A stretch of DNA of 64,000 nt, taken from assembly GCF_041248615.1 (NCBI RefSeq), contig NZ_CP158425.1; one strand, written 5' to 3'. A program made the translations under genes and the position numbers. The DNA is from Escherichia coli (lineage in GTDB: Bacteria > Pseudomonadota > Gammaproteobacteria > Enterobacterales > Enterobacteriaceae). The notes beneath the pieces are model-generated. The model was not told where the DNA came from. It made no database searches and saw only the letters and a list, made by a program, of their open reading frames with translations. Numbering within the stretch: position 1 is the stretch's first letter; the number at the start of each line of letters is the position of its first letter. Positions 5,546 through 63,667 of this stretch are shown here, in pieces.

Positions 5546-5570
5546 ATATCAAGCGACTTCTCCTATCCCC

Positions 5571-5776: not shown

Positions 5777-5880
5777 ACGTTGTGTCTCAAAATCTCTGAT
5801 GTTACATTGCACAAGATAAAAATATATCATCATGAACAATAAAACTGTCTGCTTACATAAACAGTAATACAAGGGGTGTT

Positions 5881-12699: not shown

Positions 12700-12718
12700 G
12701 CAATGAGTCCTGACCCTA

Positions 12719-13318: not shown

Positions 13319-13841
13319 CATCAGTCGATTGACGGTGATTGCGCGCACGTGGACGCGCATCATGACAGGTATGACGAGCCTTTGAACGTCCGCTGGCTGT
13401 GCCGGCGCCATCATATCCGGCTGCACTTCTACGGTGAGGACATGTTTCCTATGTGCAGGCCGCATCACGTATGAACGGCGGCTCTCCGGTTATGCCTCAA
13501 CGCCGCTGAAAGCGTCGCGCGGTCAGTCAGCCATGACGATCATACCTTATTCAGATCATGCGATCGGCGCCCTGCCATCAGGAGGATGAAATGCGTAAAG
13601 ATCAGATCCCGGATTTCGTTGATGAGATCTTCGCCACCGGCTGCCCAATCACCGCAGTAGGACAAGATTGCTATGTTTTGCAGAGAGCGATCTGCTGGCA
13701 GAAGACTTCGACCGTGTTGGTGAGGTGGTCGATAAAATCTGCCAGCGATAAGGAAAGCGTGACCATCTGTTGCTGACATCAGAGGTGGCTCGGTTTGTCT
13801 GAACAGTTTTGGGCGTTTTGCTAAGTGGATTTCCGCCTTGA

Positions 13842-17415: not shown

Positions 17416-17491
17416 CGCGATATCTCCTTTTAAATTAAAAATGAAGTTTTAAATCAATCTAAAGTATATATGAGTAAACTTGGTCTGACAG

Positions 17492-18364
<873 letters not shown>

Positions 18365-19230: not shown

Positions 19231-20737
19231 CTCCCCTCAAAGCCATATCACGTACGTTAATCCTGACTTCATTAAAATCAGTGGTTTCACTGAGGAAGAA
19301 CTATTAGGCCAGCCTCACAACATCGTAAGACACCCAGATATGCCGCCTGCTGCATTTGAGCATATGTGGAGTACATTAAAATCTGGCCGCTCATGGATGG
19401 GGCTAGTAAAAAATCGCTGTAAAAATGGCGACCACTATTGGGTAAGTGCTTATGTAACGCCAATAGCTAAGAATGGTTCGATTGTTGAATACCAGTCTGT
19501 AAGGACCAAGCCTGAACCTGAGCAGGTTTTGGCTGCGGAAAAATTATATGCTCAATTGAGAAGCGGGAAGGCCGCGAGGCCGAAATTGGCTGCTAGCTTT
19601 TCCGTGAAAATACTCTTGCTCATATGGGGTAGTATTATATCAAGCGCAATGGCTGCCGGCATGCTTACTGATACATCAATAAGCAGCTTATTGTTAGCCA
19701 CTTTAATGTCAGGAAGCTTAAGCTCTGTTAGTGTTTTGGCTATTCTCTCTCCTCTTGGAAGACTGGTTGAAAGAGCCAGGAATATTTCCAATAACCCATT
19801 AAGTCAATCCCTCTACACTGGGCGCACCGATGAGTTTGGCCAAATAGAGTTTGCTTTACGAATGATGCAAGCTGAAACAGGCGCCATAGTAGGTCGCATA
19901 GGTGATGCATCAAATCGGCTTAGCGAACACACCCGAGGCCTACTAAAGGATATTGAGTCAAGCAATGTACTTACAGTTGAGCAGCAGGCAGAGACAGATC
20001 AAATAGCAACGGCAGTAAACCAAATGGTGGCAAGCATTCAAGAGGTTGCGAGCAATGCACAGCATGCTGCAGATGCGGCCGGAAGAGCAGACACTGAGAC
20101 GGCATCTGGCCAGCGTCTGGTAGCCCACACAAGCCAGTCAATCACTGCCCTTGAAGGTGAAATTAGGCAAGCCACTCAGGTTATTCATGAGCTTGAAGGT
20201 CAAAGTAACGAGATATCAAAAGTTCTTGACGTTATACGAGGGATCGCCGAGCAAACGAATTTGTTGGCACTCAACGCAGCAATTGAGGCCGCGCGTGCTG
20301 GTGAGCAGGGGCGTGGTTTTGCTGTTGTCGCCGATGAGGTTCGCAGTCTTGCTGCTCGCACACAGCAATCGACAACGGATATTCAAAGCATGATCAGCGC
20401 TCTACAAGAGCGAGCGCAATCCGCTGTTACAGTCATGGAGCAAAGTAGTCGGCAAGCGCACACGAGTGTAGCTCACGCAGAGGAAGCAGCTACAGCTCTT
20501 GATGGAATTGGCCAACGCGTTAACGAAATTACCGACATGAACGCGCAAATAGCGACTGCGGTCGAGCAGCAGGGAGCAGTAAGTGAAGACATAAACCGCA
20601 GTATTATCAATATACGCGATGCTGCTGATACCAATGTACAGACCGGGCAGAATAATTTGCAAAGTGCGAAATCTGTCGCTCAGTTAACTAGCGCTCTGAG
20701 CGAACTGGCAAAACAGTTTTGGGAAAAACGAGGATAA
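19231..20737 (+). pseudogene. Aer-like PAS-domain methyl-accepting chemotaxis protein, N-terminus removed by IS1
   Basis: The frame opens at the IS1 boundary. The PAS core [39 protein letters not shown]...NGDHYWV resembles E. coli Aer. It is followed by a hydrophobic hairpin, HAMP and the MCP signalling domain ([31 protein letters not shown]). Confidence 0.8.
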
Positions 20738-20870
20738 CGCTTTTCAGTATCTCGACAGGGATAACTTACTTTACCATCGGTTATCCCTTTTAGCCGCACA
20801 AATTTTAGCCATGGCTTTTCAGGAAGTCAGGGCTATCAGAATGGCCTTAGAAAGCCTAGTCAAAGAGCTG

Positions 20871-21671
20871 TCACGAGAACACCGTTAGCTTAGCGTACGA
20901 TTTTTTCCGAATTCTGCGGTTCCCCCTTAAATACCTTCCGATGGACTTAAACCTTGCCGCTGCAACTTCCTCGAAATAGGGCAGCATTCTTTTGCTGGCA
21001 TTAGCGATTGCCTGCGTTCGTTGTGTGATGATTTTGCTGATGGCTGTGCTGATCTGCCCTTCTTTTAAGGCCGCTTCTCTGATTTGTTCAATGCGGGTAT
21101 CTGAAATACCAGAGGACAGAGCATTCTGAACTGATCCAATTGCCAAGGAAGTGACCGCCTGCTGCTCTTGAGAGGGCACTAACGCAACGCTAATGCCCGT
21201 CACAGGGTTTTCACGGTCATCTGTACCTAATTGCTCAATCGCGAGGTCACGGAGCCCCTGAGCATCACTCACGAGGGCTGTAAGCGATGCCTGTAGGCTA
21301 TTCACTTCTTCCTGAGCTTGTCTGAGTTCAGCATCCCGGATTACCTTATGGTCGGGTTCAAATACAAAACTGGACAGAAAATCCTTAACCAGGAAGCGAT
21401 GCTCTCGCATTTCTTTGCCACGTTCCCTACGGTAGCCACTGCTGTCTTCAGTGACAATAGCAACAGTCTGACCGTAAACGCGGGGATGGGCGCGTAGAAT
21501 TACTGTATGCAGCTTATCTTCAACGTAACGCAAAGACGTAATGAGCAGTGTATCCCCTGCCACAATACCCTCTTCAGGGATGCTGTCAGTGGACGTCCAG
21601 TACTGACCCGCCAGCAAAGAATGAAATCGCTCTAAACGGTCAATGCTATTTTTGCTGACCAGGTCACCCAT
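20871..21671 (-). CDS. hypothetical protein with central coiled-coil
   Basis: 266-aa ORF with a GGAAGGA RBS 8 nt upstream of the ATG. No recognisable motif. Confidence 0.55.
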   Translation of the reverse strand: MGDLVSKNSIDRLERFHSLLAGQYWTSTDSIPEEGIVAGDTLLITSLRYVEDKLHTVILRAHPRVYGQTVAIVTEDSSGYRRERGKEMREHRFLVKDFLSSFVFEPDHKVIRDAELRQAQEEVNSLQASLTALVSDAQGLRDLAIEQLGTDDRENPVTGISVALVPSQEQQAVTSLAIGSVQNALSSGISDTRIEQIREAALKEGQISTAISKIITQRTQAIANASKRMLPYFEEVAAARFKSIGRYLRGNRRIRKKSYAKLTVFS

Positions 21672-24916: not shown

Positions 24917-24961
24917 CGGCCATGACCGGCATGGCCGTACTCATCAAAAGTGAAAGTAACT

Positions 24962-25771
24962 TTAGGCCCCGCGAGCTTTTTCGATTGCGCCCTGCAAAGT
25001 TGCTGCGTCCATAGCCCCGGGGATAAATGTGGTAGTCGCCGCATTCGGCTTTTTCATATTCATAATGATGAAGCCGGGTGTGCCGGTGATCCCAAGCGCT
25101 TCGCCCAGCTGCATGTTGCCGGAGATCACGTTTTCATATCGGTTTTTTTCCCTGTCAGAAAACGTGCTGTTAAACCCTGACTTATCCACCACAGTATTAA
25201 AGTCGCTGAGTTCGAATTTGCGTTGAGAGGTCATGAAGGTATGAGCCACAGCCATCAGGTTGTTGTGGTATTTACGATAGGCTTCAGCACCGAAATTCTG
25301 ATAGACGTGCAGACCCGTAGCGGCCCCCATGGCAGATACAGGTTTTGAACCGGCAAAAATCGGGAATTCTTTAAAGAAGAATTTTACATCTTTGCTCTGA
25401 TTCATTACCGATTCAACAACAGGTGTAACCCGCATGCAGTAAATACACTGATAGTCGAAGAACTCGATTACCGCGACGTCGGCGTCATCCGGGCCGATGT
25501 TTGGCGTCTCCTTGGTATCCAGCAGAGCTGGCGCATATGGAATTATTCGTTCCACTGAGGCACTTACGTTCTGATTTTCCAGCGCCTTACCTGCTTCCAC
25601 TAAATAATGGGGATTTTTTACCAGGTAAGTAGCGGCAATTTTGCCAATTTCTTCCTCACTGAGCACCTTCGGTTTAAAATAAGTTGCCGCGATTAACGCC
25701 GAGGCAGCGGTAGCAATTACCGCAGAAATTAAAATCGTGGCCATCGGTTTTAAATAAAATTCTTTAGACAT
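24962..25771 (-). CDS. membrane-anchored DsbA-like thiol:disulfide oxidoreductase
   Basis: N-terminal TM segment and a thioredoxin CxxC motif (FFDYQCIYCMRV). Confidence 0.75.
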   Translation of the reverse strand: MSKEFYLKPMATILISAVIATAASALIAATYFKPKVLSEEEIGKIAATYLVKNPHYLVEAGKALENQNVSASVERIIPYAPALLDTKETPNIGPDDADVAVIEFFDYQCIYCMRVTPVVESVMNQSKDVKFFFKEFPIFAGSKPVSAMGAATGLHVYQNFGAEAYRKYHNNLMAVAHTFMTSQRKFELSDFNTVVDKSGFNSTFSDREKNRYENVISGNMQLGEALGITGTPGFIIMNMKKPNAATTTFIPGAMDAATLQGAIEKARGA

Positions 25772-26489: not shown

Positions 26490-26548
26490 AAGCAGACGGC
26501 GGGAAGAGAATGTTCAAAAGTGACTTTTGGACACGCACATAAACGTGG

Positions 26549-27397: not shown

Positions 27398-27421
27398 ACA
27401 CACCTCTTACAGTCGGAAAAG

Positions 27422-28171
27422 TTACTTTTGCGCAGCGCCCATTTGGGTCACCAGGTTTTCCGGGCTCAGCCACCCCGTAAATAACTGCGGTTTGCCGCTT
27501 AGTGTCACCATGGTAGGAGTACCTTGCAGCGGGATTGTTGAGGCCACCTGGAAATGCGATTTGATAATGTTTAAGCAAGCCTCATCAGGACGTCCTTCCG
27601 GGATAGTTGAAACCGGATTCATCGCTGCATCCAGAGCTTCGTTTGGCTTTGCTGAACACCAGATTTTGGCCATGTTCCCGGCTACTACCGAGTTCAGTCC
27701 TGCACGTGGGAATGCAAGAAACTTAATCGAAATACCGGCATCAAGATAAGACTTCAGATCATGATGCAGTTTTTGGCAGTATCCACAGGTTATATCGGTA
27801 AAGATAGCAAGCCGGTATTTTTCGTTTGGTGATTTGTAGTCGATGGATTTTGTTTTGGATGCGAATTCCCGGACGCCCATTAAAATGGCCTGCTCAGTGG
27901 TGTTTACCACATCTTTACCTTTCACGTGGAATAAGCTTCCGGTAAAAATGTAATCTCCGTCTTTGCTCACGTAACTTACCCCCTCCCTGGAAATCACCGT
28001 AAAAATATCTTTTACTGGCGAGGGTTCGACGTGCTCGATTGAAAGCCCAATGGCTTTGAGCTTATCCCGGGCTGCATCTGGCAGTACCATTGTATTAACC
28101 GGCTCGGCATTCATCGTGAAGGCGGTACTTAATGAAAGAAGTAATACCGATGCCTTAATAATTTTTTTCAT
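27422..28171 (-). CDS. dsbC: DsbC-like periplasmic disulfide isomerase
   Basis: Signal peptide, an N-terminal dimerisation-like domain and a thioredoxin CGYC motif (DITCGYCQKLH). DsbC homologues are typical of SXT/IncC-type transfer regions. Confidence 0.8.
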   Translation of the reverse strand: MKKIIKASVLLLSLSTAFTMNAEPVNTMVLPDAARDKLKAIGLSIEHVEPSPVKDIFTVISREGVSYVSKDGDYIFTGSLFHVKGKDVVNTTEQAILMGVREFASKTKSIDYKSPNEKYRLAIFTDITCGYCQKLHHDLKSYLDAGISIKFLAFPRAGLNSVVAGNMAKIWCSAKPNEALDAAMNPVSTIPEGRPDEACLNIIKSHFQVASTIPLQGTPTMVTLSGKPQLFTGWLSPENLVTQMGAAQK

Positions 28172-28940: not shown

Positions 28941-29507
28941 TTGTCTTTTTCTGCAAGAAATATATTTAAGATTCTCTCTTCTTTCTTGATGCAGAAAAGC
29001 CCTCTTCATGAAGAAGTATGTGTTCCTGAAGAAACAACAGCTGGTTTATGGGGCCCTCTCCCTGATTCGCATGTCGTGCTTTTCTTAGATTTCGATGGGG
29101 TTTGTCACAGGTGCAAAAATGAAACCTTTGAGCGAATGCCATTGGTGGAAAAATTACTGGATAAATGCCCTTCCATGGTGATTGTCATCTCCAGTTCGTG
29201 GCGTGAATGTGCCAGTATAACTTACCTGAAATCTCTTTTCCGGCTACCTTATAGAGACAAAGTCATAGGTGCTACCGATTCGGTATATTTAAAACCTAAT
29301 CAGTCAGGTGTGCGGGCTGCTGAGTGTGAGGACTTTGTATTTTCACATCGAGTTAAAGCATTTATCTGCCTTGATGACGACGAATCATTATTCCCGGTCG
29401 GTTATCCACATTTGCAAAAAACCAATTATTACACCGGCCTCACCGAATCTGATCTTGCAGCTCTTAACACCAGGTATCATCTGCTTATGAAACGTTGGGC
29501 TTCCTGA
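28941..29507 (+). CDS. HAD-like (HAD_SAK-type) hypothetical hydrolase
   Basis: VVLFLDFDGVCHR ... VVISSSWRE resembles the HAD domain family seen in phage/plasmid proteins. The start codon is uncertain (TTG at 28941 or a downstream ATG). Confidence 0.45.
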   Translation: MSFSARNIFKILSSFLMQKSPLHEEVCVPEETTAGLWGPLPDSHVVLFLDFDGVCHRCKNETFERMPLVEKLLDKCPSMVIVISSSWRECASITYLKSLFRLPYRDKVIGATDSVYLKPNQSGVRAAECEDFVFSHRVKAFICLDDDESLFPVGYPHLQKTNYYTGLTESDLAALNTRYHLLMKRWAS

Positions 29508-29614
29508 ATTAAAGTAACTTTTACGGAGAGCATGCCCGCATTATCAGTTCTATGCTTCTCCATTTCTGCCCCGGGTCAAAGCATTGCACAGTTGGAAGAA
29601 AACATGCCGGTCTC

Positions 29615-30904
29615 TTAAGCTTGCTGCTCAGTTTGGTTCCGGTGCTGAAAAACCTGCCAACGGTGCTTTAGGAATTCAGTATTGATGGGTTTACGCAGCG
29701 GCTTAATAAACTCTCCTTGATATGCCGCTAAATCATGATCTACCGCCAAAGCTTCAGCGAGAATGTTAACCTCCAACGTCACCGGATGAATGGCAATCAT
29801 GTTTGCGTCGAAAAGATCGTGTATATCATGGCGTAAGAGCAACCCATTTGTATAATGGTCTACTCCTCCGTTACGATGCTCCATCAGATGAGCAGCCTCA
29901 GTGCGCTGGCGCAGTCTAGAGCCTGTAATCACACATTGGTCATAACAGTTGTTGCGGACGGCTTCTGCAAATGAGGCCTGATCTGGTCGTGTCTCGACAG
30001 TTGTCTTACTACCCTTACGCTTACCCGGTACAGTAGTTTCATCAGGAATATTCGGCTGAAGCTCCTTTTCTTCTATACCATCAGTCTTCATAGCGACCAT
30101 AATCGCGGCCGGTGGAGATTTAGGCTGATCTTCCTGCGATCTTTCGCGGCCACCAACTGGATACCCTAGAAAACCCTCAATGATCTCTAGTGGAGGTAAT
30201 GTAGCGTTTGAACGTGCATAAATAGCGAACTCTGCGGCACGTCCGCCGGGAATATATCTACGTACCAGTATTGGAAGAGAGGCTTCTTCATCTGGTTCCT
30301 CTTTTTCCGACAGGATTATTCGTTCGGTGAGACGGGCTGAATTTTTTTTCATTTCACTCAACAGTCTATTGCGTTCTTTTACCTTTCGGTCATTATCCTC
30401 CAACATCTTACGATGACTAACCTTAGCCAGATGGTCTTCCAGTTCCTGTATATATTCGGGATCGATAGTGTCAATTAGACCGAACGCCATCAACCGCTCC
30501 CCCCTTGTTTTACAAGATTCTAGCCGAACGCGAATGTACTCCTTACGCTTGGCCATCAAATGTTCTTTTTGTTTTTTTTCTCGAATTACACGGAGCTGAG
30601 TATTGTAATTAGAATAAACGGTTTCGCTATTCTGCTCTGTCTCTAGAGCAAATTTTTGTAGGTGTTCACGTAGTTTTTTACGGGTATTTTTGGGGGCATG
30701 CATTACGGTACGCTCAATGTATGAGCCTGTGCAGCGTAAAGAAAGTACAGTTTCAGCATGGGAATAACCAGCATTGAGACGATAGCGGGCAATTTTAAGC
30801 AAATTATTAAAGTGTGCACCATTACATATACCTAGTTCTTCCAAGACACGACGTTCTCTATCATTAATAGATGGATGGTTAATATCTTTTACTTTGTTTG
30901 CCAT
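29615..30904 (-). CDS. HNH endonuclease-domain protein with long coiled-coil N-terminal region
   Basis: 429 aa. The C-terminal part ...AAHLMEHRNGGVDHYTNGLLLRHDIHDLFD... is an HNH-type motif. It has its own putative promoter (TTCATA-17-TACAAT) after the traG terminator. Confidence 0.7.
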   Translation of the reverse strand: MANKVKDINHPSINDRERRVLEELGICNGAHFNNLLKIARYRLNAGYSHAETVLSLRCTGSYIERTVMHAPKNTRKKLREHLQKFALETEQNSETVYSNYNTQLRVIREKKQKEHLMAKRKEYIRVRLESCKTRGERLMAFGLIDTIDPEYIQELEDHLAKVSHRKMLEDNDRKVKERNRLLSEMKKNSARLTERIILSEKEEPDEEASLPILVRRYIPGGRAAEFAIYARSNATLPPLEIIEGFLGYPVGGRERSQEDQPKSPPAAIMVAMKTDGIEEKELQPNIPDETTVPGKRKGSKTTVETRPDQASFAEAVRNNCYDQCVITGSRLRQRTEAAHLMEHRNGGVDHYTNGLLLRHDIHDLFDANMIAIHPVTLEVNILAEALAVDHDLAAYQGEFIKPLRKPINTEFLKHRWQVFQHRNQTEQQA

Positions 30905-35046: not shown

Positions 35047-36462
35047 TCAGTTACGTGTGCCACGAATACTTTCAGTGAAAGCCTTCCGTTGCAGGCGACG
35101 GTTATCCCAGGTTGAAATGACGTCCGAGCTGGTACCGACCTGGCTGTGCGATAGCTCATAGGCGGCTTTAACCTGTTTTGAGAGATTGTCTGTTAATCGG
35201 TTGAGATCATCCCTTTTACCCGACAGCGACTCACTCGGTATGCTCATGGTTGAAATTTTGGCCTCAACCTGGCGCAACATGTTGATTACGAGGCTCGTCG
35301 CAGCAATAGTGCTTATGTCCTGAATGTATGCGTACCCTTCCGGTGCTTCGAATGTTTGCAAAGAGTCGATAATGGTCGGGATGCCGATATAGGAGATAAT
35401 GCGTAATTCATCATCTGAAACACGAACGTCGTTGATGATTTTTTTCTGTACGTTTAAAAGAAGATCAGAAATGGTATCCTTCAATCCCTTAAAACCACCG
35501 TCATTAACTTCTGACATGACAAGGCACTGAGCCTTTCGTGGGGATGATGGATCTGGTGCCGGAGAACACTTGAGCATTTTAATTGATCCGCCAGCTGGTG
35601 GCCCCATGATGTAATCCGTGACAGTCATGGTAGACGGGCGGACTTCCATTCCCGCTTTTTCGCCTTTGCTATCCCAGTTGATAATGACAGTACCCACGAG
35701 AGACATAAGTTGTTCTGCCAATTTATAACCGGATAACTCCGTTACCCCTCCGATGTTCATTGTTCCCTTATCAATATCCATGAACGACATATAGAAGAGG
35801 TTACCACTGAATTTTTCAGCGAACTCTTCGGGATCCTTTGCTTTAACCTGAGAAGTGACAGCTTCAGGTGACTTTGTCATCGATGAGCCAAAATCAGGAA
35901 TGAGACCATTAATCGATCCCAGAATTGAGGCTGGTCCAGAGCTAACTGAGTTAGCGAACTGGCTTGGCGTACCCACGTTTTCAGAAAGGAAAGAGTAAGT
36001 TGCATTGCATGAATCTTTCGCAAATTTATTTAGCGCTTGCAGTTTGTTTTGGATGTCATTAATCGTTGCAGCACAGTCAGCACAAATAGCTGAAACAGCA
36101 ACGTTAAAAGCATAGATAGCCGCACCCTGGGCAATACCACGGGCCACCTGCACAAGCTGGTCCCCGTTGATCATGCTGAAGGACCCAAGAAAAACGTCAA
36201 TACCATTACAACCGACAGAAGCTTTTGGAAACGACATGGAAACAAGGTTGGTATTAACGTTTGTTGTTCGGTAAGACATTGACCCGCCAACTATGCCTGT
36301 ACGGGTTGCTGTGGAAAAGGTGGCCGGGCTGGTAGACGTCATCATGCCATTGAAAATGTTACGCATTGCGTTGTCTGCATTTGCAGTCGGGGCTAAAATT
36401 GCAGCACAAACAGAAAGAGACAAAAGTAACTTTTTGAAGTTGAAAACGGCATTACTGCGCAT
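35047..36462 (-). CDS. traH: F-type T4SS protein TraH
   Basis: Signal peptide MRSNAVFNFKKLLLSLSVCAAILAPTANA. The start at 36462 overlaps the traF stop by 11 nt. Typical TraH size. Confidence 0.8.
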   Translation of the reverse strand: MRSNAVFNFKKLLLSLSVCAAILAPTANADNAMRNIFNGMMTSTSPATFSTATRTGIVGGSMSYRTTNVNTNLVSMSFPKASVGCNGIDVFLGSFSMINGDQLVQVARGIAQGAAIYAFNVAVSAICADCAATINDIQNKLQALNKFAKDSCNATYSFLSENVGTPSQFANSVSSGPASILGSINGLIPDFGSSMTKSPEAVTSQVKAKDPEEFAEKFSGNLFYMSFMDIDKGTMNIGGVTELSGYKLAEQLMSLVGTVIINWDSKGEKAGMEVRPSTMTVTDYIMGPPAGGSIKMLKCSPAPDPSSPRKAQCLVMSEVNDGGFKGLKDTISDLLLNVQKKIINDVRVSDDELRIISYIGIPTIIDSLQTFEAPEGYAYIQDISTIAATSLVINMLRQVEAKISTMSIPSESLSGKRDDLNRLTDNLSKQVKAAYELSHSQVGTSSDVISTWDNRRLQRKAFTESIRGTRN

Positions 36463-38091: not shown

Positions 38092-38604
38092 TTAATCTAA
38101 TTCTTCTTGAGAATACCTCTCTATGGCTGAAGCAGTTGAAGATAATCTGCAACGTGGACAATAAGCATCATTTGTCACTGGCACAATGTATGGGCGTTTA
38201 CATTTTTCGCAGGCACCTAGTTCTTCAATTTCTTTCATAGAAGTAAGGATTTCTATTATTTTATTAACTTCCGGTGCGCATACAAAGTATCCCAGATTAT
38301 GAAGGACACTCATTATTCGGTTGAAGTCAATTTGCCGAAAACTCGCTTCCGGATTTATTGGATCAAAACCAAAATAGTTAACTGCGACATCAATAACAGC
38401 AGAAAAAGCTCGGCGGTTATCTGTGCGTTTGCTCCAGCCCCGGATACCTTTTTTGAGTTTTGTTTTTGCACCAGGCTCAAAATCGATATTTTCAGCAACA
38501 TGATTACCGTACAAAATTCGTATTGTATTTTTATTTGCCCCAAGCGACATAGTCCTTGCTGCTCGCAATAGAGCATTAGCTTTTGTTTGATCGACCTTTG
38601 CCAT
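38092..38604 (-). CDS. FlhC-family transcriptional activator subunit (SetC/AcaC type)
   Basis: 170 aa. C-terminal zinc-ribbon CEKC...CPRC as in FlhC. Sits upstream of traFHG as in SXT/IncC-type elements. Confidence 0.75.
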   Translation of the reverse strand: MAKVDQTKANALLRAARTMSLGANKNTIRILYGNHVAENIDFEPGAKTKLKKGIRGWSKRTDNRRAFSAVIDVAVNYFGFDPINPEASFRQIDFNRIMSVLHNLGYFVCAPEVNKIIEILTSMKEIEELGACEKCKRPYIVPVTNDAYCPRCRLSSTASAIERYSQEELD

Positions 38605-38605
38605 A

Positions 38606-39406
38606 TTAATAATCCTTTAACATAACTTTATTTGTTAAAGTGTTGAACACATCCTGACGGTGACTGGTGAACATAGTGTCATAACGTAATAGTTCCATCA
38701 AATCATCACTAACTTTTCCTAACCGGATGTCAGCAGACAATTCATAAGCCCAGGCAAAAACTTTCGTTTTAAGTGAAACACTCTCTTCAATATGCCCTTG
38801 TGAGAAAGCAATTGTACGTGGGAAAAGAACGACATCGTTAATTGTTTTTAACGATGAATAACCAATGTCTTTAATAGCATCAGCTGTAGTTGGTTTTAAA
38901 CCAAAGAAAACACTTACAAACTCTGGTGCGAGCATTGAGATAAAGAACACCTGCATAAAGTAGTCATTCTGTATATCAACACATTTAGAACGCAACTCAT
39001 GAATCTTCTTGGGATTATAGATATCCACTGTACCATTCAGAAAAGTCACTTTTTCACCGGCATCGTAAATACCATAGTCAATATCATTTGTATCATATTC
39101 ACGAATTACATTGGAATCACCGTCCAAGACCGCAGAAAAAAACCTCTCCCATGTAATTTCCTTTCCGAGTGTACGCGGAACCAAAAAACTACCTGGACGT
39201 GTTTCCACTTCAAAAGCTAAATCAGCGGCTGTACTAAATCCTTTCCCAAATAGGCGACGCTGGAGAAGAGGAGTCCCAGTTTGATATGCAGAAGATCCAT
39301 GCACAGGCAATAACATTAAAAATGCACGGTAACTACGAATAAGCGAAATCTCAGTGCGGAAAAGTTTACCGAGTAAGCTACGAGTTAAATTATCAGATTC
39401 TGACAT
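38606..39406 (-). CDS. putative FlhD-like activator subunit (SetD/AcaD position) with about 140-aa N-terminal extension
   Basis: Stop codon lies 1 nt before the FlhC-like ATG. Residues about 145-210 (YFMQVFFISMLAPEFVSVFFGLKPTTADAIKDIGYSSLKTI) weakly resemble the FlhD helical core. The assignment rests mostly on synteny. Confidence 0.45.
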   Translation of the reverse strand: MSESDNLTRSLLGKLFRTEISLIRSYRAFLMLLPVHGSSAYQTGTPLLQRRLFGKGFSTAADLAFEVETRPGSFLVPRTLGKEITWERFFSAVLDGDSNVIREYDTNDIDYGIYDAGEKVTFLNGTVDIYNPKKIHELRSKCVDIQNDYFMQVFFISMLAPEFVSVFFGLKPTTADAIKDIGYSSLKTINDVVLFPRTIAFSQGHIEESVSLKTKVFAWAYELSADIRLGKVSDDLMELLRYDTMFTSHRQDVFNTLTNKVMLKDY

Positions 39407-39733
39407 GTGCTGATTGTCCTTGCGCCATTACAATTGTTCAAATCTTCAACATGGATTTTTTGTTAGGTGTTCGGTAGGGTGAAAAGTAACTTTTAGTATT
39501 TTCTTAAGGCTTGAATAAGCCTTAAATCTATCCCTTCAACCACACCGCTTACTTGTAACACTTTTTAACCAAACTGACCAGAATTTTATCAAAATTTCTT
39601 CGCATGCTAACGAAATGTGAAGCGATTAAAAAAAAACCTAAATCCAGCCCCTCCCAACGTTGGATTAGAATAACGACGTCTTTCACTGACCGTCATAAAC
39701 TGACATTTTTACTTTTCATCAACCTCATGCTTA

Positions 39734-39897: not shown

Positions 39898-40164
39898 GAT
39901 ATATGTATAACTTTAATAGAGCAATGCACATTATCAAAAGCAATAATCCACAATGGTCATTCCCTCAAAAGTAACTTTAGAGGGTAGCGATGGAAGTGAG
40001 GCTAAACTCGCTGTTACTGTTTCTGAAGGCCCCTCCCGAATGGGGGAAACAGCGAGTGCATTACATCTGTTCAATTCCCTCATCAAAGAGCATTCAAAAA
40101 TCTTCTGTTCGTGAAAAAAAACGGAAATTTCCTCCGGTATAGTAATTTCACATCAGGAGGCGTC

Positions 40165-41387: not shown

Positions 41388-44300
41388 ATGATGATGAATT
41401 TCAGGGCGCTGTATTTATGTATTAAACGGATTTTGGGGATATTCTCATCTCAGGAGAATGATGCAACCTCTGTAATGATTGAGGATATATCAAGCCTCTC
41501 TCCTTTTGCGCAGATTCTAGGAGATCAGAAGTACACTGTTCCTGATCATCCAAATCCAGAAGTCCTGAAATTCATCGAGTATCCAACTCGTCCGACGGGC
41601 ATACAGACATTTAATGAACAGTCAATCCTGTCTCTGTATCGGGAAAAGCTGCACTCAATTTCAATGATGTTAGCTATCAGCGATAGCGACATCAGGGACG
41701 ATGCATATACATTTACTAATTTAGTATTAAAGCCCTTGGTTGAATATGTTCGCTGGATACATCTTTTGCCAGCTTCCGAAAATCATCATCATAATGGTAT
41801 TGGTGGGTTACTTTCTCACAGCCTGGAAGTGGCCATACTCTCTTTAAAAAATGCGCATCACTCAGAACTGAGACCAATCGGATATCAAGATGAAGAAGTA
41901 GTCCGTAGAAAAGTATATCTCTATGCTGCGTTTATCTGTGGTTTAGTCCATGATGCCGGAAAGGTTTACGATCTCGATATTGTAAGCCTGAATTTAGCTA
42001 GTCCGATCATTTGGACGCCAAGCTCACAAAGTCTTCTTGACTGGGCACGTGAAAATGACGTGGTTGAATACGAAATCCACTGGCGAAAGCGTATTCATAA
42101 TCAACATAATATCTGGTCCAGCGTTTTCCTTGAGCGAATCCTAAACCCGGTATGTCTTGCATTTTTGGATCGGGTAAATAAAGAACGTGTTTATTCAAAA
42201 ATGATCACCGCCCTAAACGTTTATACTGATGGGAATGACTTTTTGTCTAAATGCGTGAGGACCGCTGATTTCTATTCTACTGGTACAGACCTTAATGTTT
42301 TACGTGACCCTATCATGGGTCTGCGTTCTAATGATGCAGCAGCAAGGGCCATTAGTACCATCAAGCACAACTTTACCAGTATCAATATCAACAATTACAA
42401 TGCTAAGCCTATGCACATCATTATCGTAAATGGTGAGGTATACCTTAACGAGAACGCATTCCTTGATTTTGTTCTCAATGATTTCGAATTACATAAATAT
42501 AACTTCCCTCAGGGAGAGGCTGGTAAGACGGTATTGGTAGAATCCCTAGTTCAACGTGGTTACGTCGAGCCCTATGATGATGAGCGTGTCGTTCACTACT
42601 TCATTCCGGGTATCTATTCGGAAAACGAAATATCAAACATCTTTAGAAATGGGATAGGGAAACTAGAATTCTATAACCTTCTTAAGCTAAGGTGGATTGG
42701 TTTAATCTTTGATTCCTATAAAATCCCTGACTCAGTGCCGGGTCTTTTTAGCGTTAATGCCAATAAAGACTTTATTTACATTGACGAGCAAAAAACAGTT
42801 ACTGAATACAGAAGACCAGTGCCCGGTCGGGACGCTATAACTAAAATTACTGATACTGTTGAGACGGCTGTTCTTAAGGTTAATGATTTAGGCCGCTCCA
42901 CTGCCTCTATTGATGTTGATATACATTCTAAGAAAAATGAAGGCTCATCCGACGATTTTGAGAAGAAAGCCGAAAGTGATAATGAAATTGATAATGACAC
43001 GCAGATAGTTAAATCTGAGGGTGAGGAAGCAGCTGATCCTGTCATTCCTGATATAGAAGAAAGTGAAGATGAATCGGCAAAGGACACGGAATCCCATGTC
43101 CTGGTCAACCAACTTCATGAACTCCTTTTAAGCGCTCCACTTTCCAATGACTATATAGTGTGTGTAGATGCTGTCCCCTACCTCAACATAGATGCCACTA
43201 TGGCATTGCTGCCGGGATTAGATGAAAAAGCATTTAGTGAAGAGCCCTATTTCCAACTGACATTCAGAGAAGGCTCTCTCGATGGAATGTGGATAGTAAG
43301 GGACATTGACGATCTGCGTTTAGTCCAGCTCGGCGATAACTGCGCCGGGTTCCAGCTCACCTATCATGAGCCAAGAAGGCCAACAACTTTAAAGTCACTT
43401 TTCAATACTTCTATGTATCAGGCATTAGTGATTAATGATGAGTCTTCTGTTGAAAACTCTGCCCCACGTCCAAAGCAAACGCTTGAGCTGCCTCCCCCAC
43501 GTGTAAATGCACTCGAAGAACATTCTGGCGACGTGGAATATCATGGAACCGATAGTGCATCCGCGACTGGTCCGCTGAAAACTGAGGCTGTGGAATATGA
43601 ACATTATCAACATCTTTTTGAGGAAGAAGATGAAGAGCATGAGATCATTGATTATACCGATTTCACACAGCTTAGTGTTTCTCGGCCAGAAGTCGGTAGT
43701 TGTGCAACAAGCTCTTCGGTCCATAATGAAAAGCTTCTCCCCGAGCCGTCAGAATTACCAGAACTTAACCGAGAACAGAACGCTGATCCCCAGGGTACGA
43801 TTGAACGCTCTATGGATGTTTCTGTAGGACAAGAAAACTCAGAACCAGATACTGAGGGTAACTGCCCACCACCAGCTGAAGTTGTGTATTCCCAGACCGA
43901 AGCAGCCGCAACCAGTGTGATGGCAAGTGAAGAGCCCGCCTTACCTCCTGTACTTGAAGAATCAAATGGAGAGCATGCGCCCACAGACGCTAAGGGGCAT
44001 CATCTTTCGCCAGCACTGGCCAGACTGTTCGCCCCAACAGCACCGGTAGAAAAACAAAATCCCAAGCGCAACCGGAATAAATCATCGGACAAAGCAGAAG
44101 TACAAAAACCAGCATCACCTGTTTCTGGTCACAATCTGAACAGTAAAGTCTTTGCAACTACTGAATCAGACCAAAATGGTGAATTCTCGCTTATAAGCGA
44201 AGGTGACGTTACAGAGCTTGAATTTGTAGAAATTGCGTCAGTACTGCATCAAATTCTGTCCAAAATGGAGGTGGCGTTTAAAAGAAAGCGCAAAAACAGA

Positions 44301-44540: not shown

Positions 44541-46624
44541 TGTCAGATTCGAAGAGGACTAACCTCCATGCACAAGAGAATTTTTATCGGCCTATTCTTG
44601 AGTATCGTAGTGCCTCAATACTTTTGATTTGTTCGGTTTCTATGCTTTATATGGGACTTTCTTCAGACGGACTGGACATCGCCCCAATAGTTCTGTTCAC
44701 CTCAATATTGCTTTTTTTGCTGTGCCTTTATCGTTGCAAAACAGCAGCGCCATTCTTGATGGCTCATTGGCGTGTATTCAAGCGACATTTCATGTTCGTT
44801 AGTCTTGATTCACTGCGTGTAATTAACAAAAGTAACTTTTTCTCCAATGAGCGAAAGTATCGTCAACTGGTTCAGGATTATCAAAATAAAAATAAGGATA
44901 TACCCGAGCGAAAGTCCTATTTTTGTGATGGGTTTGAGTGGGGCCCGGAACATGCGGATCGGGCATATCAAATAGCTAACCTCTCCAGTGATAAACGTGA
45001 GATCGAGTTGCCATTCGTCTTCAACCCAATTAAGAGACATTTTGACGCAATGGCTCGTAAGATGGGCGGCAGCAATGCAATTTTTGCTGTGGAACGTAGG
45101 GAACCCATATTTGTAACTGAAGACAATTGGTTTGGTCATACTCTGATAACCGGAAACGTGGGTACCGGGAAAACGGTGCTACAGCGTTTACTAAGCATTA
45201 GCATGCTTCATCTTGGTCATGTTGTTGTTGTCATAGATCCAAAGAACGATGCAGAGTGGCGAGAATCTCTAATGGAAGAGGCTAAGACCCTCGGTCTTCC
45301 TTTCTATAAATTTCATCCTGGCCAGCCAGCATCTTCGGTCTGTATTGATGTCTGCAACACCTATACTAATGTTTCTGACCTAACATCTCGTCTTTTGAGC
45401 TTGGTGACAGTTCCCGGTGAGGTTAACCCATTCGTTCAGTATGCCAAGGCTCTCGTTTCCAATGTGATTTCCGGGCTTTCTTACATAGAGAAAAAGCCTT
45501 CTATTTATCTGATTCACAAGAACATGAAAAGCCACATGTCTATTGTGAATCTTACAGTCAAGGTAATGGAGTCATGTTACGCGAGATATTATGGTTACGA
45601 TGTCTGGACCGAAAAAGTTAAGTACGTCGCTAACGAAACCTTGCCGGTACGTTTCAAGCGTCTCGCTGAATGGTTTACGGCTCATTTCATGAATTACGAG
45701 GGGTCCGAACAAATAGACTGGTTAGATACTGTTTCCCAGCTTATTGATTACTCAATGTCCGACCCAGAGCATATGGCTAAAATGACCGCAGGTATTATGC
45801 CTGTTTTCGATATGCTCATTGAAAAACCTTTAAATGAGCTTTTATCTCCTAACCCGAACTCAGTATCATCAAGAGAAATTGTAACAAGCGAAGGGATGTT
45901 CAGCACTGGCGGGGTGCTATACATTTCGCTTGATGGCCTTTCAAACCCCGATACAGCAGCTGCTATTTCTCAATTAATAATGTCAGATCTGACCTCCTGT
46001 GCCGGTAGTCGCTACAACGCTCAGGATGGTGATATGTCAGCTAATTCCAGGATAAGTATTTTTGTTGATGAGGCACACTCAGCCATTAACAACCCTATGA
46101 TTAACCTTCTGGCGCAGGGTCGTGCAGCGAAAATTGCACTGTTTATTTGCACCCAAACCATCTCCGACTTTATTGCTGCGGCAAGTGTTGAAACTGCCAA
46201 TCGAATTACGGGGCTCTGCAACAATTATATAAGCTTGCGAGTCAACGATACTCCTACTCAGACGCTTGTTGTAGAGAACTTTGGTAAGAGTGCGATAAGC
46301 ACAAATATGGTCACTTATACGACCGGTTCAGAAACATCTTTGCCGCATAATAACTTCTCAGGTTCAATCTCAGAAAGAAAGCAGACAACTTTAGAAGAGA
46401 GTATTCCAAAGGATCTCTTGGGTCAGGTCCCTATGTTTCACATAGTTGCCAGGCTTCAAGATGGCAGGAAGGTTGTAGGCCAAATCCCTATTGCTGTTGC
46501 TGAGAAACAAATGAAGCCAAACACAACTCTGTCGGAAATGCTTTTCAAGAAGGCCGGAAAAGTTACTTTGCGTCAAAATCTCGATATCAAAAATCTTAAT
46601 AAATTTCTAAGGAAGTTGCATTGA
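44540..46624 (+). CDS. traD: type IV coupling protein TraD
   Basis: 694 aa. N-terminal TM segments, Walker A GNVGTGKT and Walker B-like ISIFVDEAH. ATG overlaps the traI stop by 1 nt. Confidence 0.85.
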   Translation: MSDSKRTNLHAQENFYRPILEYRSASILLICSVSMLYMGLSSDGLDIAPIVLFTSILLFLLCLYRCKTAAPFLMAHWRVFKRHFMFVSLDSLRVINKSNFFSNERKYRQLVQDYQNKNKDIPERKSYFCDGFEWGPEHADRAYQIANLSSDKREIELPFVFNPIKRHFDAMARKMGGSNAIFAVERREPIFVTEDNWFGHTLITGNVGTGKTVLQRLLSISMLHLGHVVVVIDPKNDAEWRESLMEEAKTLGLPFYKFHPGQPASSVCIDVCNTYTNVSDLTSRLLSLVTVPGEVNPFVQYAKALVSNVISGLSYIEKKPSIYLIHKNMKSHMSIVNLTVKVMESCYARYYGYDVWTEKVKYVANETLPVRFKRLAEWFTAHFMNYEGSEQIDWLDTVSQLIDYSMSDPEHMAKMTAGIMPVFDMLIEKPLNELLSPNPNSVSSREIVTSEGMFSTGGVLYISLDGLSNPDTAAAISQLIMSDLTSCAGSRYNAQDGDMSANSRISIFVDEAHSAINNPMINLLAQGRAAKIALFICTQTISDFIAAASVETANRITGLCNNYISLRVNDTPTQTLVVENFGKSAISTNMVTYTTGSETSLPHNNFSGSISERKQTTLEESIPKDLLGQVPMFHIVARLQDGRKVVGQIPIAVAEKQMKPNTTLSEMLFKKAGKVTLRQNLDIKNLNKFLRKLH

Positions 46625-51297: not shown

Positions 51298-51653
51298 AAT
51301 GCCCTCCTTTGTATGTGATTATTATACCTGCTTCCATTGCAGGCCAAACAGGTTCGGTGTATGAAAAATAGACTTCTCTCCGGCGTATAGCAATCTACTT
51401 ACTGATCTGTTTTCGTATCAAACTGTATGGCATAACCGAGGGGCGTACGTGGTGAGTCAGAAAGTTACTTTTCCGTAATAGTTAATTTCAGATCCTTCTT
51501 CCAGTTACGCTTCAGTATAAAACCGATACCCTCTAATTCAGCATCCTTCACGTTTAATACGCTTCACTTTAAGGCAGGGCTTTTCGGTTGATATGAATTC
51601 TTTTTCCGGTTGCTGGACATGGGTTTCATCCTGATAGTTAAAATTGCAGGCTA

Positions 51654-54887: not shown

Positions 54888-55169
54888 TCACTGCATACGC
54901 GAATAGTGGTTTGTATTCAGTTCTGCGTTTGCCTGCTTTTCCAGTGCTGTCATAACCCGGCGGAGCATCGCCAGAGCCTGAACAGGCGAGCTCCCAAACT
55001 GCACTTTCACTTCAGCCGTATCATGATCCTGAATCAGGTCGAGTATATTCACTTCGATCCCTGCCCCGTTTTCATCTTTTGCCGTGCACTGAATACTTAC
55101 CCGGGTCACCGAATCCGTCAGGACTGGCAGTGGGTTAGTTTTGTCTACGTTGATAACAGCCTTCTTCAT
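54888..55169 (-). CDS. hypothetical protein
   Basis: 93 aa with an AAGGGGA RBS, directly downstream of the parB-like terminator. Confidence 0.5.
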   Translation of the reverse strand: MKKAVINVDKTNPLPVLTDSVTRVSIQCTAKDENGAGIEVNILDLIQDHDTAEVKVQFGSSPVQALAMLRRVMTALEKQANAELNTNHYSRMQ

Positions 55170-55189: not shown

Positions 55190-55228
55190 TGAAAAAGTTA
55201 CCGACCCGTCCGGATGGAGGGGTCGGTC
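55190..55228 (-). terminator. rho-independent terminator after the parB-like gene
   Basis: Stem CCGACCC/GGGTCGG followed on the minus strand by AACTTTTTC. Confidence 0.65.
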
Positions 55229-55234
55229 AGAAAA

Positions 55235-56419
55235 TCATGACTGTCCCTTGTTCATCTTATCAGCATGCTTACGCAGGTACTCTTTCAGGTCAGCATGAGC
55301 GTTGATGATATCGTTCATTTCATCATTGGTCAGAACAAGCGTGTAAGTATCAGTACTGACAGATTCACCTTCTTTAAGCTTGGCTTCTTCAGCAATACGT
55401 TCAAAAATCGGGATCGCGGTGTCTGCAATGACGGTCACAGTCTTTTTGTTCAGAACGCTGGACATGGAAGGTGCTTTACCTGCCGGGTTCTGTTTAGGAG
55501 CGCTGTCCTTTGGAGCTGGAGCCGGTTCCTGTACCGGTGGCGTATCCAGCGTCTCCGTATTGCTTTCATCGTTCAGTTGATCCGGTACCGGGGTGTTATC
55601 GGTAGTATCATCTGCCGGTTGCTCAGCACCGATGTTTTCCGGAGTCTGCGGATCTGCCATGCGCTCTTCTACCTTGGCAGCTTTGACGAATTTCAGCGTG
55701 TTTTTCGTCGCCTTGCCATAGATGGAGATCGCTTTGTTGATGTTATCTACCGCATCCTCACCGCTGTACATATACTCGTCCAGTGCAACGTACATGCTCA
55801 CCTGATCGCTCACAAGCATGGTCTGTAGTTCAGAAGGCAGGTCCAGTACGCGAACCATCTGGCGAAGATGCTGCTCTGATTTACCACGTTTTTTTGCCAG
55901 TTCCGCAAAGGTCTTAGGCTCTTCTTTATCTTCAACCAGACGCTTAATTGAAAGCGCTTCAGCTACGACAGACAGCGCCAGGTTGGAGTTGCCGGTCAGG
56001 GTGAAGAGTTCTGCTTTTGAAGCGCTACCGCGAAACTCTTCGCAGCGAATACGAGTAATGCGTTCACGCCCTTCTGCTTCCAGCTGGCGGTTTGCAATAG
56101 CGATGGAACGGATACGGCAAGCCCCCTGACGCAGTACAGGTACGCCATTAACCATCTGAACAACGATAGGCGTCACGCTGAACGGGTCTTCCATGTAGGC
56201 ATCGGCCAGGCTGTTCAGGTGTTCCACAACGTGAGGCATTGAATAGTAGAGCTCGCCCATACCGGCCGTGCGGGTGTTAAAGCCTTCCTGCTCTACAACA
56301 ACCGAAGGGTCAATGATAAGGCCGTTGCCTTTACGGGCACCGTTACCAGTGCGTTCCAGGTAACCACGAAGGCTGATTTCGTTGCTGTTGTTTTTTACTT
56401 CAGTTTCGATTGCGGACAT
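55235..56419 (-). CDS. ParB/KorB-like DNA-binding protein (orphan, no adjacent ParA)
   Basis: 394 aa. ParB N-terminal-domain-like region (LIIDPSVVVEQEGFNTRT ... LRQGACRIRSIAIA), an HTH region (KTFAELAKKRGKSEQHLRQMVRVLDLPSELQ) and an acidic/proline-rich linker. Confidence 0.7.
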   Translation of the reverse strand: MSAIETEVKNNSNEISLRGYLERTGNGARKGNGLIIDPSVVVEQEGFNTRTAGMGELYYSMPHVVEHLNSLADAYMEDPFSVTPIVVQMVNGVPVLRQGACRIRSIAIANRQLEAEGRERITRIRCEEFRGSASKAELFTLTGNSNLALSVVAEALSIKRLVEDKEEPKTFAELAKKRGKSEQHLRQMVRVLDLPSELQTMLVSDQVSMYVALDEYMYSGEDAVDNINKAISIYGKATKNTLKFVKAAKVEERMADPQTPENIGAEQPADDTTDNTPVPDQLNDESNTETLDTPPVQEPAPAPKDSAPKQNPAGKAPSMSSVLNKKTVTVIADTAIPIFERIAEEAKLKEGESVSTDTYTLVLTNDEMNDIINAHADLKEYLRKHADKMNKGQS

Positions 56420-56834
56420 TTTTGTTCTCTTTTTTGGTTGGTTGTTTAACTGCGCTACAACACAACAATACCAGGTTCGACATTTTTCCTAATAGGTTGC
56501 GGAGAAGAAAAAGTAACTTTTTTTAAAAATTTTCCTGAGGCAATACTACTCGATCCGTCCGTTTTAAATCTTCACAACAGTGGGCCGTTTTTACGTTTAA
56601 GCAAAATAACTGGTTCAGAAGGTGACTCAGAGAGAAAAGTTACTTTTCCGGTTGTCTGGGCCAGTGATGGGAGAGTGGCAGGACAGGAATGGCTAAACCG
56701 GTGCGGGTCTCTTGTAAGTCGCAGGGGATTCAGGAGATATAGAGGTAAACTGGTACGTTCAGTTTTTGGATTGAGCCGGGCTTTTGGCCCGGGCTTAAGG
56801 AAGCAGAAATTTGAACGAACTGGCAGGTAATGCT

Positions 56835-63488: not shown

Positions 63489-63667
63489 CGGTTGCCTTCC
63501 ATTCAGGGAGAATTCTCAGTAATTACATCACACCTGAAGAGAAACTATTTTCGTATAAATGAGCATTTTCGACATATCAGAGGGGGGGTTTACTCATAAA
63601 TGAGGTAGTAAGGGTCACACTTGAGGTGAAAGTTACTTTCCTGGCTGCGAACGAACTATCTCAAATG

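Follow-up and report, generated by a model that had tools for sequence, protein, structure and literature searches.

An orphan ParB-like gene of the IncHI plasmid backbone and the palindrome that recurs in its leader and across the plasmid

The 64,000-nucleotide stretch of Escherichia coli contig NZ_CP158425.1 analysed here (the window) carries, at 55235-56419 on the minus strand, a gene for a ParB-like protein of 394 amino acids (aa), hereafter the focal gene and the focal protein. The gene is an orphan member of the ParB nucleoside triphosphatase (NTPase) fold and belongs to the conserved backbone of IncHI plasmids. Two 13-bp palindromes stand in its leader, and they are real, selected sites: the motif is enriched on the plasmid, favours intergenic DNA, is conserved at the DNA level and constantly accompanies the leader of this gene. 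We give about even chances to a mechanism in which the focal protein binds the palindromes, autoregulates and acts plasmid-wide. The identity of the binder, the use of a nucleotide, and repression as against activation are matters that we infer.

Enrichment and conservation of the palindrome

The gap upstream of the focal gene spans 415 bp (56420-56834). As the initial annotation had noticed, two dyads lie in it, and both proved to be perfect 6+1+6 palindromes, AAAAGT-N-ACTTTT, each the reverse complement of the other. The consensus of the motif was aAAAGT(A/T)ACTTTt, with no extended flanks. When at most one mismatch was accepted, 13 matches were found in the window (0.24 expected; maximum of 3 in 100 shuffles), and the 11-bp core occurred there in 15 copies. 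Eight of the 14 sites in the annotated window span were intergenic, whereas intergenic DNA makes up 16% of this span (P = 5e-4).

The window DNA is 100% identical to that of IncHI2 plasmids such as pSTM6-275 (NZ_CP019647). On this plasmid of 276 kb, the core was present in 49 copies against 0.38 expected, and the perfect 13-mer in 23 against 0.03. With IS26 copies set aside, it was by far the most enriched palindrome of pSTM6-275 and no backbone rival came close; the accessory DNA (~75 kb) held just one core copy. By hand mapping, about half of the plasmid sites fell between genes and ahead of a gene start. For the 25 pairings of site and gene that were examined, the distance from the site centre to the start codon downstream was 26-301 bp, mostly 80-250 bp. 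No second motif was found at a fixed distance from the sites.

The motif was likewise present on related plasmids, with 9 core copies in 22.6 kb of IncHI1 pHCM1/R27, 21 in 41 kb of a Klebsiella IncHI1B/FIB plasmid, 7 in 21 kb of a Yersinia plasmid and 7 in 21 kb of a Buttiauxella plasmid, and it occurred on further relatives. Eight of nine IncHI1 sites (Tra1 and the orthologue leader) matched window sites in position. Four of five intragenic sites kept all 10 specified bases between IncHI2 and IncHI1, although identity of the genes that contain them is 73-75% and the two groups differ at the free centre base and in the flanks of the conserved sites. Selection thus appears to act on the DNA itself.

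At least two sites stood upstream of the focal orthologue in every lineage checked, over a range of protein identity from 98% down to 35%. The leaders of IncHI2 and IncHI1 (64.8% protein identity, tblastn) carried two each, those of two relatives at 64-73% three each, those of Buttiauxella (48%) and Yersinia (44%) two each, and that of the Klebsiella IncHI1B homologue (35%) five to six. The proximal site began ~100-120 bp before the ATG in every lineage checked, in leaders that were otherwise barely alignable, and it was the sole block common to all in a four-way leader alignment. The leader sites and the other copies in the window are given below; no strand is assigned to the palindrome.

56509-56521: proximal leader site AAAAGTAACTTTT, centre 96 bp upstream of the ATG (scan; aligned in all four lineages within diverged DNA)
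56635-56647: distal leader site AAAAGTTACTTTT, centre 222 bp before the ATG, at a distance of 126 bp from the proximal site (scan; second site in every orthologous leader)
39482-39494: intergenic copy in the oriT gap, 82 bp ahead of trhR (position conserved in IncHI1)
39967-39979: copy in the oriT gap with one outer base mismatched, 192 bp ahead of mobI/traH (position conserved in IncHI1)
36422-36434: intragenic copy 34 nt into trhH (all 10 specified bases kept in IncHI1; gene 75% identical)
39041-39053: intragenic copy in trhR (scan; IncHI1 comparison)
44828-44840: intragenic copy in the 5' part of the coupling-protein gene (scan; IncHI1 comparison)
46558-46570: copy at the junction between the 3' end of the coupling-protein gene and the gene that follows (scan; IncHI1 comparison)
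43390-43402: copy within the mobH relaxase gene, without conservation in IncHI1 (scan; IncHI1 comparison)
51460-51472: copy between genes, 169 bp ahead of a small gene on the minus strand (scan)
24953-24963: 11-bp core copy between the convergent umuC and dsbA-like genes (core scan)
26516-26528: copy between convergent genes (scan)
27417-27429: copy where two genes meet, ~26 bp before the next ATG (scan)
29510-29522: copy between convergent genes (scan)
63629-63639: 11-bp core copy, intergenic, mapping to pSTM6-275 position 218655 (core scan)

As a control of the method, a scan of IncC DNA recovered CTTTCACATGTGAAAG, the 14-bp core of which is that of the published IncC parS. On the IncC plasmid pNDM-EcoGN568 (L009), this sequence was located at 290, 3874, 4333, 9648, 12984, 24028 and 27443, which amounts to 7 copies in 40 kb, nearly all intergenic and one of them 63 bp upstream of parA. 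The same plasmid encodes at 19944-20882, ~3 kb upstream of parA-parB-053, an orphan protein homologous to the focal one (32% identity), and no palindrome was found in the leader of its gene. Literature searches with the motif string, the protein accessions, and IncHI combined with ParB-like or KorB found no relevant description of the palindrome or the gene.

A metagenome scan for paired sites met a ParB-like gene in just 3 of 120 loci, and many of the others were regularly spaced tandem copies; most of these pairs are probably chance pairs in AT-rich DNA. The scan was unsuitable as an unbiased association test, and it yielded the contigs L033, L104 and L127.

Fold, nucleotide pocket and expression of the focal protein

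RefSeq labels the focal protein (WP_001272970.1) 'hypothetical protein'. The initial annotation had read it as a ParB-like N-domain followed by a helix-turn-helix (HTH) and a long acidic, Pro-rich linker, and each of these parts was recovered from the open reading frame (ORF), profile searches and an AlphaFold2 (AF2) model with its predicted local distance difference test (pLDDT) values.

55235-56419, minus strand: orphan ParB-like gene, 394 aa, ATG start (ORF; WP_001272970.1; HTH_ParB; PHROG 1033; AF2 and Foldseek)
55976-56347, minus strand: ParB/Srx-fold N-domain, aa ~25-148, with a box I-like GFNTR (aa 46-50) and the P-motif G99-A-C-R102-I-R104-S (Foldseek; conservation; hhalign)
55655-55975, minus strand: ParB-type HTH DNA-binding domain, aa ~149-255, recognition helix GKSEQHLRQMVRVL (Pfam PF17762; profile match to the Caulobacter ParB HTH, 6s6h/6t1f)
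55457-55654, minus strand: disordered acidic Pro-rich linker, aa 256-321 (pLDDT; composition; length and sequence vary among homologues)
55238-55456, minus strand: conserved C-terminal domain, aa 322-394, with two helices predicted at low confidence (conservation; pLDDT 50-68)

The match to PHROG 1033, 'ParB-like partition protein', covered aa 24-255 (E 1.6e-21), Pfam HTH_ParB scored 26.6 bits (cutoff 22.6) over aa 149-209, and the family profile matched the HTH of Caulobacter ParB (6s6h/6t1f). The AF2 model, built on 20 homologues, had pLDDT values of ~85-93 over aa 20-250, 50-68 in the C-terminal domain and below 50 across aa 256-321, one residue excepted. Foldseek aligned the N-domain and HTH over 215-233 columns with M. 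xanthus ParB-CTPgS (E 2.7e-8), RK2 KorB-KorA (8qa9; E 3.7e-8), Noc and Spo0J. Among these leading matches, 8qa9 had the top template modelling (TM) score, 0.65 on the target, and sequence identity to the structural matches was only ~18%. The 66 residues of the linker from aa 256 include 13 Asp/Glu, 13 Pro and 3 Lys/Arg. The C-terminal domain was restricted to close orthologues, with just three full-length clusters at 50% identity, and is likely a dimerisation or partner-binding module. A second homologue search returned mostly proteins of the type of the second paralogue described below, and a search for related loci with their gene context gave close relatives only.

Two observations concern the N-terminus. 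Ahead of the ParB fold, at aa 16-24 (window 56347-56374), the orthologues share the conserved peptide SLR(G/T)Y(L/V)E(R/K)T, or SLRxYLE. Noc-like membrane tethering was considered and rejected, as the N-terminus MSAIETEVKNNSNE is polar and acidic and, by inspection alone, has no amphipathic membrane-targeting helix.

The protein likely has a conserved nucleotide pocket. Residues R50 (in GFNTR), G99, C101, R102, R104 and N144 were invariant in the family, and GxxR (G99, R102) was invariant in 20 orthologues and 124 subfamily sequences. The full GxxRxxA was present in most homologues, the focal copy having Ser at the last position, and hhalign paired GACRIRS with GERRWRA and ENIQR with TLTGN (probability only 47%). 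According to a 2025 survey, orphan ParB-fold proteins are common on mobile elements, often without box III, and bind cytidine triphosphate (CTP), ATP or GTP unpredictably, and neither sequence inspection nor AlphaFold3 predicts the nucleotide specificity of the fold (PMC12704722).

The focal protein combines a ParB/Srx-fold N-domain with an HTH and is outside the nuclease-only clade. It might nevertheless be an HTH-targeted enzyme of the ParB/Srx fold, whether a nuclease or an Osa/DndB/IbrB-like NTPase, that serves establishment, anti-defence or exclusion in conjugation, with the dyads as ordinary operators; we hold this to be very improbable. The P-motif consensus over the 124 subfamily sequences, RDGHCRxRA, presumably resembles the DGHHR/GCHR of enzymatic ParB/Srx members, which would suit such an enzyme, as would the weaker Foldseek matches to Srx, SbnI and SerK, the several orphan methyltransferases and the PAPS-reductase-family gene on the plasmid. 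The binding of ATP, GTP or CTP by orphan ParB-fold proteins of mobile elements (PMC12704722) points the same way. However, the top structural matches were DNA-clamp ParBs across the N-domain and HTH, PADLOC gave no match for the focal gene, the R27 orthologue is expressed constitutively and not on entry only, and ~50 conserved palindromes would be left unexplained. Rfam returned nothing.

For transcription, the following two elements were considered.

55192-55227, minus strand: terminator-like hairpin and T-run, beginning 8 nt past the stop codon (sequence; RNA fold; signal drop between R27 R0104 and R0105)
56465-56473, minus strand: candidate extended -10, TGgTATTGT, proposed by eye (block CGAACCTGGTATTGTTGT, conserved in IncHI1 and IncHI2 leaders)

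The hairpin, read on the minus strand from 55227 to 55192, is ACCGACCC.UCC....GGA.GGGUCGGU, followed by AACUUUUU, with a folding energy of ~-20 kcal/mol and a z-score of -1.7 against shuffles. A simple terminator scanner made no call at the focal gene; the hairpin was spotted by eye and then folded. By gene order, the R27 orthologue is R0104 (flmA being R0101; WP_000108722, 92336-93541). In published R27 arrays, R0104 gave 2196 (25 C) and 2155 (37 C) units, the next gene, R0105, gave ~200, and R0102/3 and R0106-9 were unexpressed. The drop from ~2200 to ~200 fits a terminator. The gene's own terminator, as proposed by the initial annotation, is thus backed by the folding energy, the T-run and the signal drop but not by the scanner or the z-score, and the action of the hairpin as a terminator is plausible, not proven. 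R0104 was constitutive in vegetative R27 cells, and in the htdA mutant it rose only 2.6-fold, compared with 10-27-fold for typical targets, which fits an independently transcribed, buffered gene. The candidate -10 would put the two leader sites at ~-57 and ~-183.

Possible binders of the palindrome

We place the focal protein with the ParB-fold regulators of mobile elements, and neither with the KorB family proper nor with the canonical partition ParBs. Like KorB of RK2, it has a ParB-fold N-domain, an HTH, a long linker and a C-terminal domain. The KorB operator OB is a 13-bp palindrome with an odd centre, found in many plasmid copies at promoter-proximal, distal and remote positions. The IncHI palindrome is also of 13 bp, 6+1+6 with an odd centre, and occurs at the presumed promoter region of the focal gene itself, but it has ~49 sites against 12 for KorB. 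Unlike KorB, the focal protein gave no match to the Pfam KorB domain (for which the IncC plasmid ParB scores 1.7e-38), has no IncC/ParA partner and no identified clamp lock of the KorA/TrbA kind, and contains GACRIR in box II in place of GERRxR, with box III unconserved. The suggestion of a KorB-like regulator in the initial annotation is strengthened by the ~49 backbone sites and the at least two sites per orthologue leader. KorB is a ParB-CTPase clamp and the global repressor of IncP RK2 (PMC11790492, PMC13584720).

VirB is an orphan ParB-like CTP switch that counters H-NS on the Shigella virulence plasmid (PMC10770331), and IncHI genes are known targets of H-NS/Hha (PMC7366339). Compared by description, the focal protein is similar to VirB: both are ParB-like orphans that play no part with a ParA, both are encoded on large enterobacterial plasmids under H-NS silencing, and near-palindromic AT-rich sites lie upstream of promoters, which for the IncHI motif are presumed ones. 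Unlike the few virS sites, however, the IncHI motif has ~49 copies, including conserved intragenic ones. BisD of ICEclc is a ParB-like CTP clamp that activates transfer promoters with the FlhC-like BisC, and its bisS sites are inverted repeats with a 1-nt centre inside genes (PMC12409273). The two proteins share a ParB-like core on a conjugative element, an extra non-ParB domain and odd-centre sites inside genes, and the IncHI sites that flank oriT and lie upstream of tra operons are a further BisD-like feature. They differ in that bisD adjoins a parA-like gene, in the number of sites (two bisS sites against ~49) and in the C-terminal domain, which is unrelated as far as tested.

Noc of Bacillus is an orphan ParB paralogue with ~70 dispersed palindromic sites. 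The focal protein is comparable as an orphan ParB paralogue with tens of dispersed palindromes and a Foldseek match to Noc (7ol9), but it has no N-terminal amphipathic membrane-targeting helix and is encoded on a plasmid, not a chromosome. IncC/IncA plasmids have a related MOBH megaplasmid backbone and a dispersed, mostly intergenic palindrome, whereas IncC ParB belongs to a parA-parB-053 operon, has a partition role and a different motif (TTTCACATGTGAAA core). It has 14 dispersed parS sites, the 22-bp form of which is bound in the electrophoretic mobility shift assay; one copy lies across the -10 of the parAB promoter, and AcaCD-dependent promoters have several others beside them (PMC10954446).

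In the mechanism that we propose, dimers of the focal protein would recognise the 13-bp aAAAGT(A/T)ACTTTt through the HTH, and the two copies in its own leader would lead to autoregulation, which would explain the steady, temperature-independent expression in R27 amid silent neighbours. The ~50 further backbone copies would be binding or loading sites in promoter-upstream gaps, at oriT, at operon junctions and inside tra genes, from which the protein may influence transcription and/or DNA organisation plasmid-wide. It may act in the manner of KorB (repressor clamp), VirB (anti-H-NS switch) or BisD (activator clamp), and would not be the adaptor of a ParA motor. The model predicts that the density of AAAGTNACTTT over plasmid records follows the focal family. 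More tentatively, and with considerable doubt, we suggest that such a ~50-site ParB-clamp system sets plasmid-wide temperature-gated expression, either VirB-like against H-NS/Hha or BisD-like with TrhR/TrhY-HtdA; this would explain why mutation of htdA derepresses most R27 genes.

Several observations weigh against binding of the palindromes by the focal protein as a plasmid-wide regulator. Pfam ParB_N (PF02195) and KorB (PF08535) did not match the focal protein, TIGR00180 reached 29.5 bits, under the cutoff of 58.45, and the N-domain alone had no PDB sequence match; fold membership therefore rests on PHROG 1033 and structure comparison, the curated ParB models being negative. The catalytic Glu of box II is replaced by Ala and its first Arg by the invariant Cys, and the E-N of box III (Mg/phosphate contacts) is absent. 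Because these residues are lacking, clamp behaviour with CTP cannot be assumed, CTP hydrolysis chemistry is not evident in the sequence, and of the CTP box GxxRxxA raised by the initial annotation the invariant GxxR is the part that stood. Three window sites lie between convergent genes and one site-holding R27 gap had no promoter activity, so the sites are not simply operators; a sigma-70 consensus scanner found no clear promoter overlapping the leader sites. For a single plasmid, two sites within a 415-bp gap are unremarkable by our estimate (P ~0.1 from the intergenic density). The motif-bearing elements share an IncHI-like backbone, any conserved factor of which could bind, and the link between gene and motif is drawn from co-location and conservation.

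Further points on this side come from two additional orphan ParB-like paralogues with HTH_ParB, which lie beside a Dam methylase and a RepB-type replicon.

pSTM6-275 (L006), 269897-271060 and 274270-275325: the two paralogues
R27 (L148), 17192-18349 and 12891-13967: the two paralogues

The first is the R27 'partition protein' R0042, with ~6100 array units in R27. Genes of this type have in their leader a one-mismatch site, AAAGTACCTTT, at ~-85 to -90, conserved in IncHI1 and IncHI2. On two motif-dense metagenome contigs with a GC content of 0.40, L033 (12 sites in 14 kb; ORF sizes resembling those of IncHI Tra2 genes) and L104 (10 in 7 kb), a gene of the paralogue-1 type has two perfect sites at ~-113 and ~-293 (L033, sites 8603 and 8782, gene ~8899-10077; L104, sites 4294 and 4471, gene ~4590-5780). 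A paralogue could thus be the binder or a co-binder. The recognition helix of these metagenome paralogues is SEMAVRQ, resembling the focal SEQHLRQ, whereas the IncHI paralogues have SPTTISS and STTAIRN. The two perfect sites of a paralogue with a focal-like helix strengthen the case that some ParB-like protein of the focal family binds the motif, and members of the family may cross-regulate one another. The covariation of recognition helices across paralogues is suggestive but ambiguous. Only the focal gene has at least two perfect sites in every lineage.

That the palindrome is instead the site of another IncHI regulator, namely TrhR/TrhY, HtdA or the R0042-type paralogue, with the focal gene merely one of its targets, is credible if rather doubtful. 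FlhDC-type complexes bind long imperfect repeats and not strict 13-bp palindromes, and the FlhC-like CxxC...CxxC pattern of TrhY was seen by eye only. Such a regulator would suit the presence of sites ahead of the tra operons AC, Z, H and R, as would the conserved near-consensus site in the paralogue-1 leader, the two perfect sites in L033 and L104 and the high signal of the R0042 type in R27. That a plasmid-wide circuit exists is apparent from the htdA mutation, which derepresses 139 of 181 expressed R27 genes (PMC7366339). By contrast, the promoter gap of the TrhRY-dependent F operon has no site while the HtdA-independent R operon has one, R0104 responds weakly to the htdA mutation, the conserved intragenic sites are ill-suited to a promoter-bound activator, and the paralogue helices differ from that of the focal protein.

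TrhY is encoded at 38092-38604 on the minus strand, and its C-terminal CEKC...(15 aa)...CPRC has by eye the zinc spacing of FlhC/SetC/AcaC. TrhR and TrhY gave no profile or PDB sequence matches; BisC, the partner of BisD, is FlhC-like, and TrhY has this zinc-ribbon pattern without a profile match. Such a pattern alongside an orphan ParB-like protein is reminiscent of BisD and BisC in ICEclc.

Plasmid setting and significance

In a plasmid collection, 1044 plasmid records contained similar DNA, and 1010 of the 1044 were typed conjugative. Collinearity of the window with the IncHI2 backbone begins at ~21,500. Window positions 1-21500 are accessory DNA, show no collinearity with the backbone of pSTM6-275 at the same offset, and contain no motif copy. 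The backbone part contains umuDC, dsb genes, the Tra1 region and a series of small uncharacterised genes, and Tra1 is represented by trhG/H/F, trhY, trhR, the oriT gap, mobI/traH, the MobH relaxase, the coupling protein, an S49 peptidase and a nuclease-related gene. The focal gene lies ~5 kb past the end of the relaxase operon and, on that operon's side of the oriT gap, ~16 kb from the gap; a leading-region context is not established. It is flanked by an ORF at 56835-57011/57065 (58 aa as annotated, 76 aa from the longest start) and one of 93 aa at 54888-55169, neither of which had a Pfam match. The small neighbouring ORFs had no family matches, and their conservation stops at IncHI1/HI2. Between the 58-aa ORF and the leader, at ~56770-56800, there is a GC-rich inverted repeat (AGCCCGGGC/GCCCGGCT) with no T-run.

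The absence of an adjacent ParA, as described in the initial annotation, extends to the entire window: annotation, Pfam and a Walker-A ORF scan found no ParA gene, and the Walker-A ORFs were those of the coupling protein and of one 184-aa protein in the accessory region. The plasmid parA, with its own P1-type ParB (PF08775), is ~80 kb away round the circle, preceded by a 249-bp repeat array of six units and with parM/parR nearby, all in Tra2. No motif copy was found at the promoter of this canonical P1-type ParB, which we take to be engaged with its own array; this favours the focal protein as the binder of the palindrome. On pSTM6-275 (L003), the tandem repeat covers 12515-14025, with ~6 copies at 74% match in a gene-free gap upstream of the canonical parA, and is probably the Par1 centromere or regulatory region.

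This setting bears on a reading that we consider unlikely, in which the focal protein is a centromere-binding or DNA-organising ParB. Its parS-like sites would then serve segregation, clustering or compaction, either with the Par1 ParA acting in trans or without a motor, and effects on transcription would be secondary. The location of many sites within genes or between convergent genes and the clustering of sites near replication genes are consistent with it, as is the conserved N-terminal SLRxYLE, which we take to bear a faint resemblance to the LGRGL-type ParA-stimulating peptides of partition ParBs. Against it stand the lack of an adjacent ParA, the P1-type ParB and repeat array that Par1 has of its own, and the enrichment of sites in promoter-compatible gaps 80-250 bp before start codons. 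The stability of R27 is attributed to Par1 and Par2. The 14 dispersed parS sites bound by IncC ParB are a precedent in its favour (PMC10954446).

A further point against a centromere role is a natural IncHI2 derivative without Tra1 and the focal gene, which persists. This plasmid, pIncHI2-1301491 (L027; 159.8 kb, typed non-mobilizable), had no focal-gene match and no relaxase but retained both replicons and paralogue 1, so that the focal gene is dispensable for plasmid survival, at least in the short term. Plasmids without the gene proved to be recent IncHI2 deletion derivatives and are uninformative on decay of the motif. As a separate observation, the Klebsiella IncHI1B/FIB plasmid (L008) has at 29080-30235 a repeat array with a period of ~61 bp, just downstream of a gene cluster with a Cas6-like and a helicase-domain gene among its members; the array looks like a plasmid-borne locus of clustered regularly interspaced short palindromic repeats (CRISPR).

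IncHI1 and IncHI2 plasmids rank among the chief carriers of multidrug resistance in Salmonella Typhi, E. coli, Enterobacter and Klebsiella, and IncHI megaplasmids carry the resistance of multidrug-resistant typhoid and mcr-1. H-NS/Hha, TrhR/TrhY and HtdA account for only part of the broad co-regulation of these plasmids and of the temperature sensitivity of their transfer. A cis-element spread over the backbone and a candidate ParB-like binder form a concrete and cheaply testable pairing. If binding holds, the focal protein would be a fourth, site-rich ParB-fold regulator of mobile elements after KorB, VirB and BisD, and the motif would offer a sequence handle against IncHI maintenance or transfer, comparable to the exploitation of IncC parS sites by SGI1. 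The findings point to an undescribed plasmid-wide control or DNA-organising system, and not to a spare partition gene.

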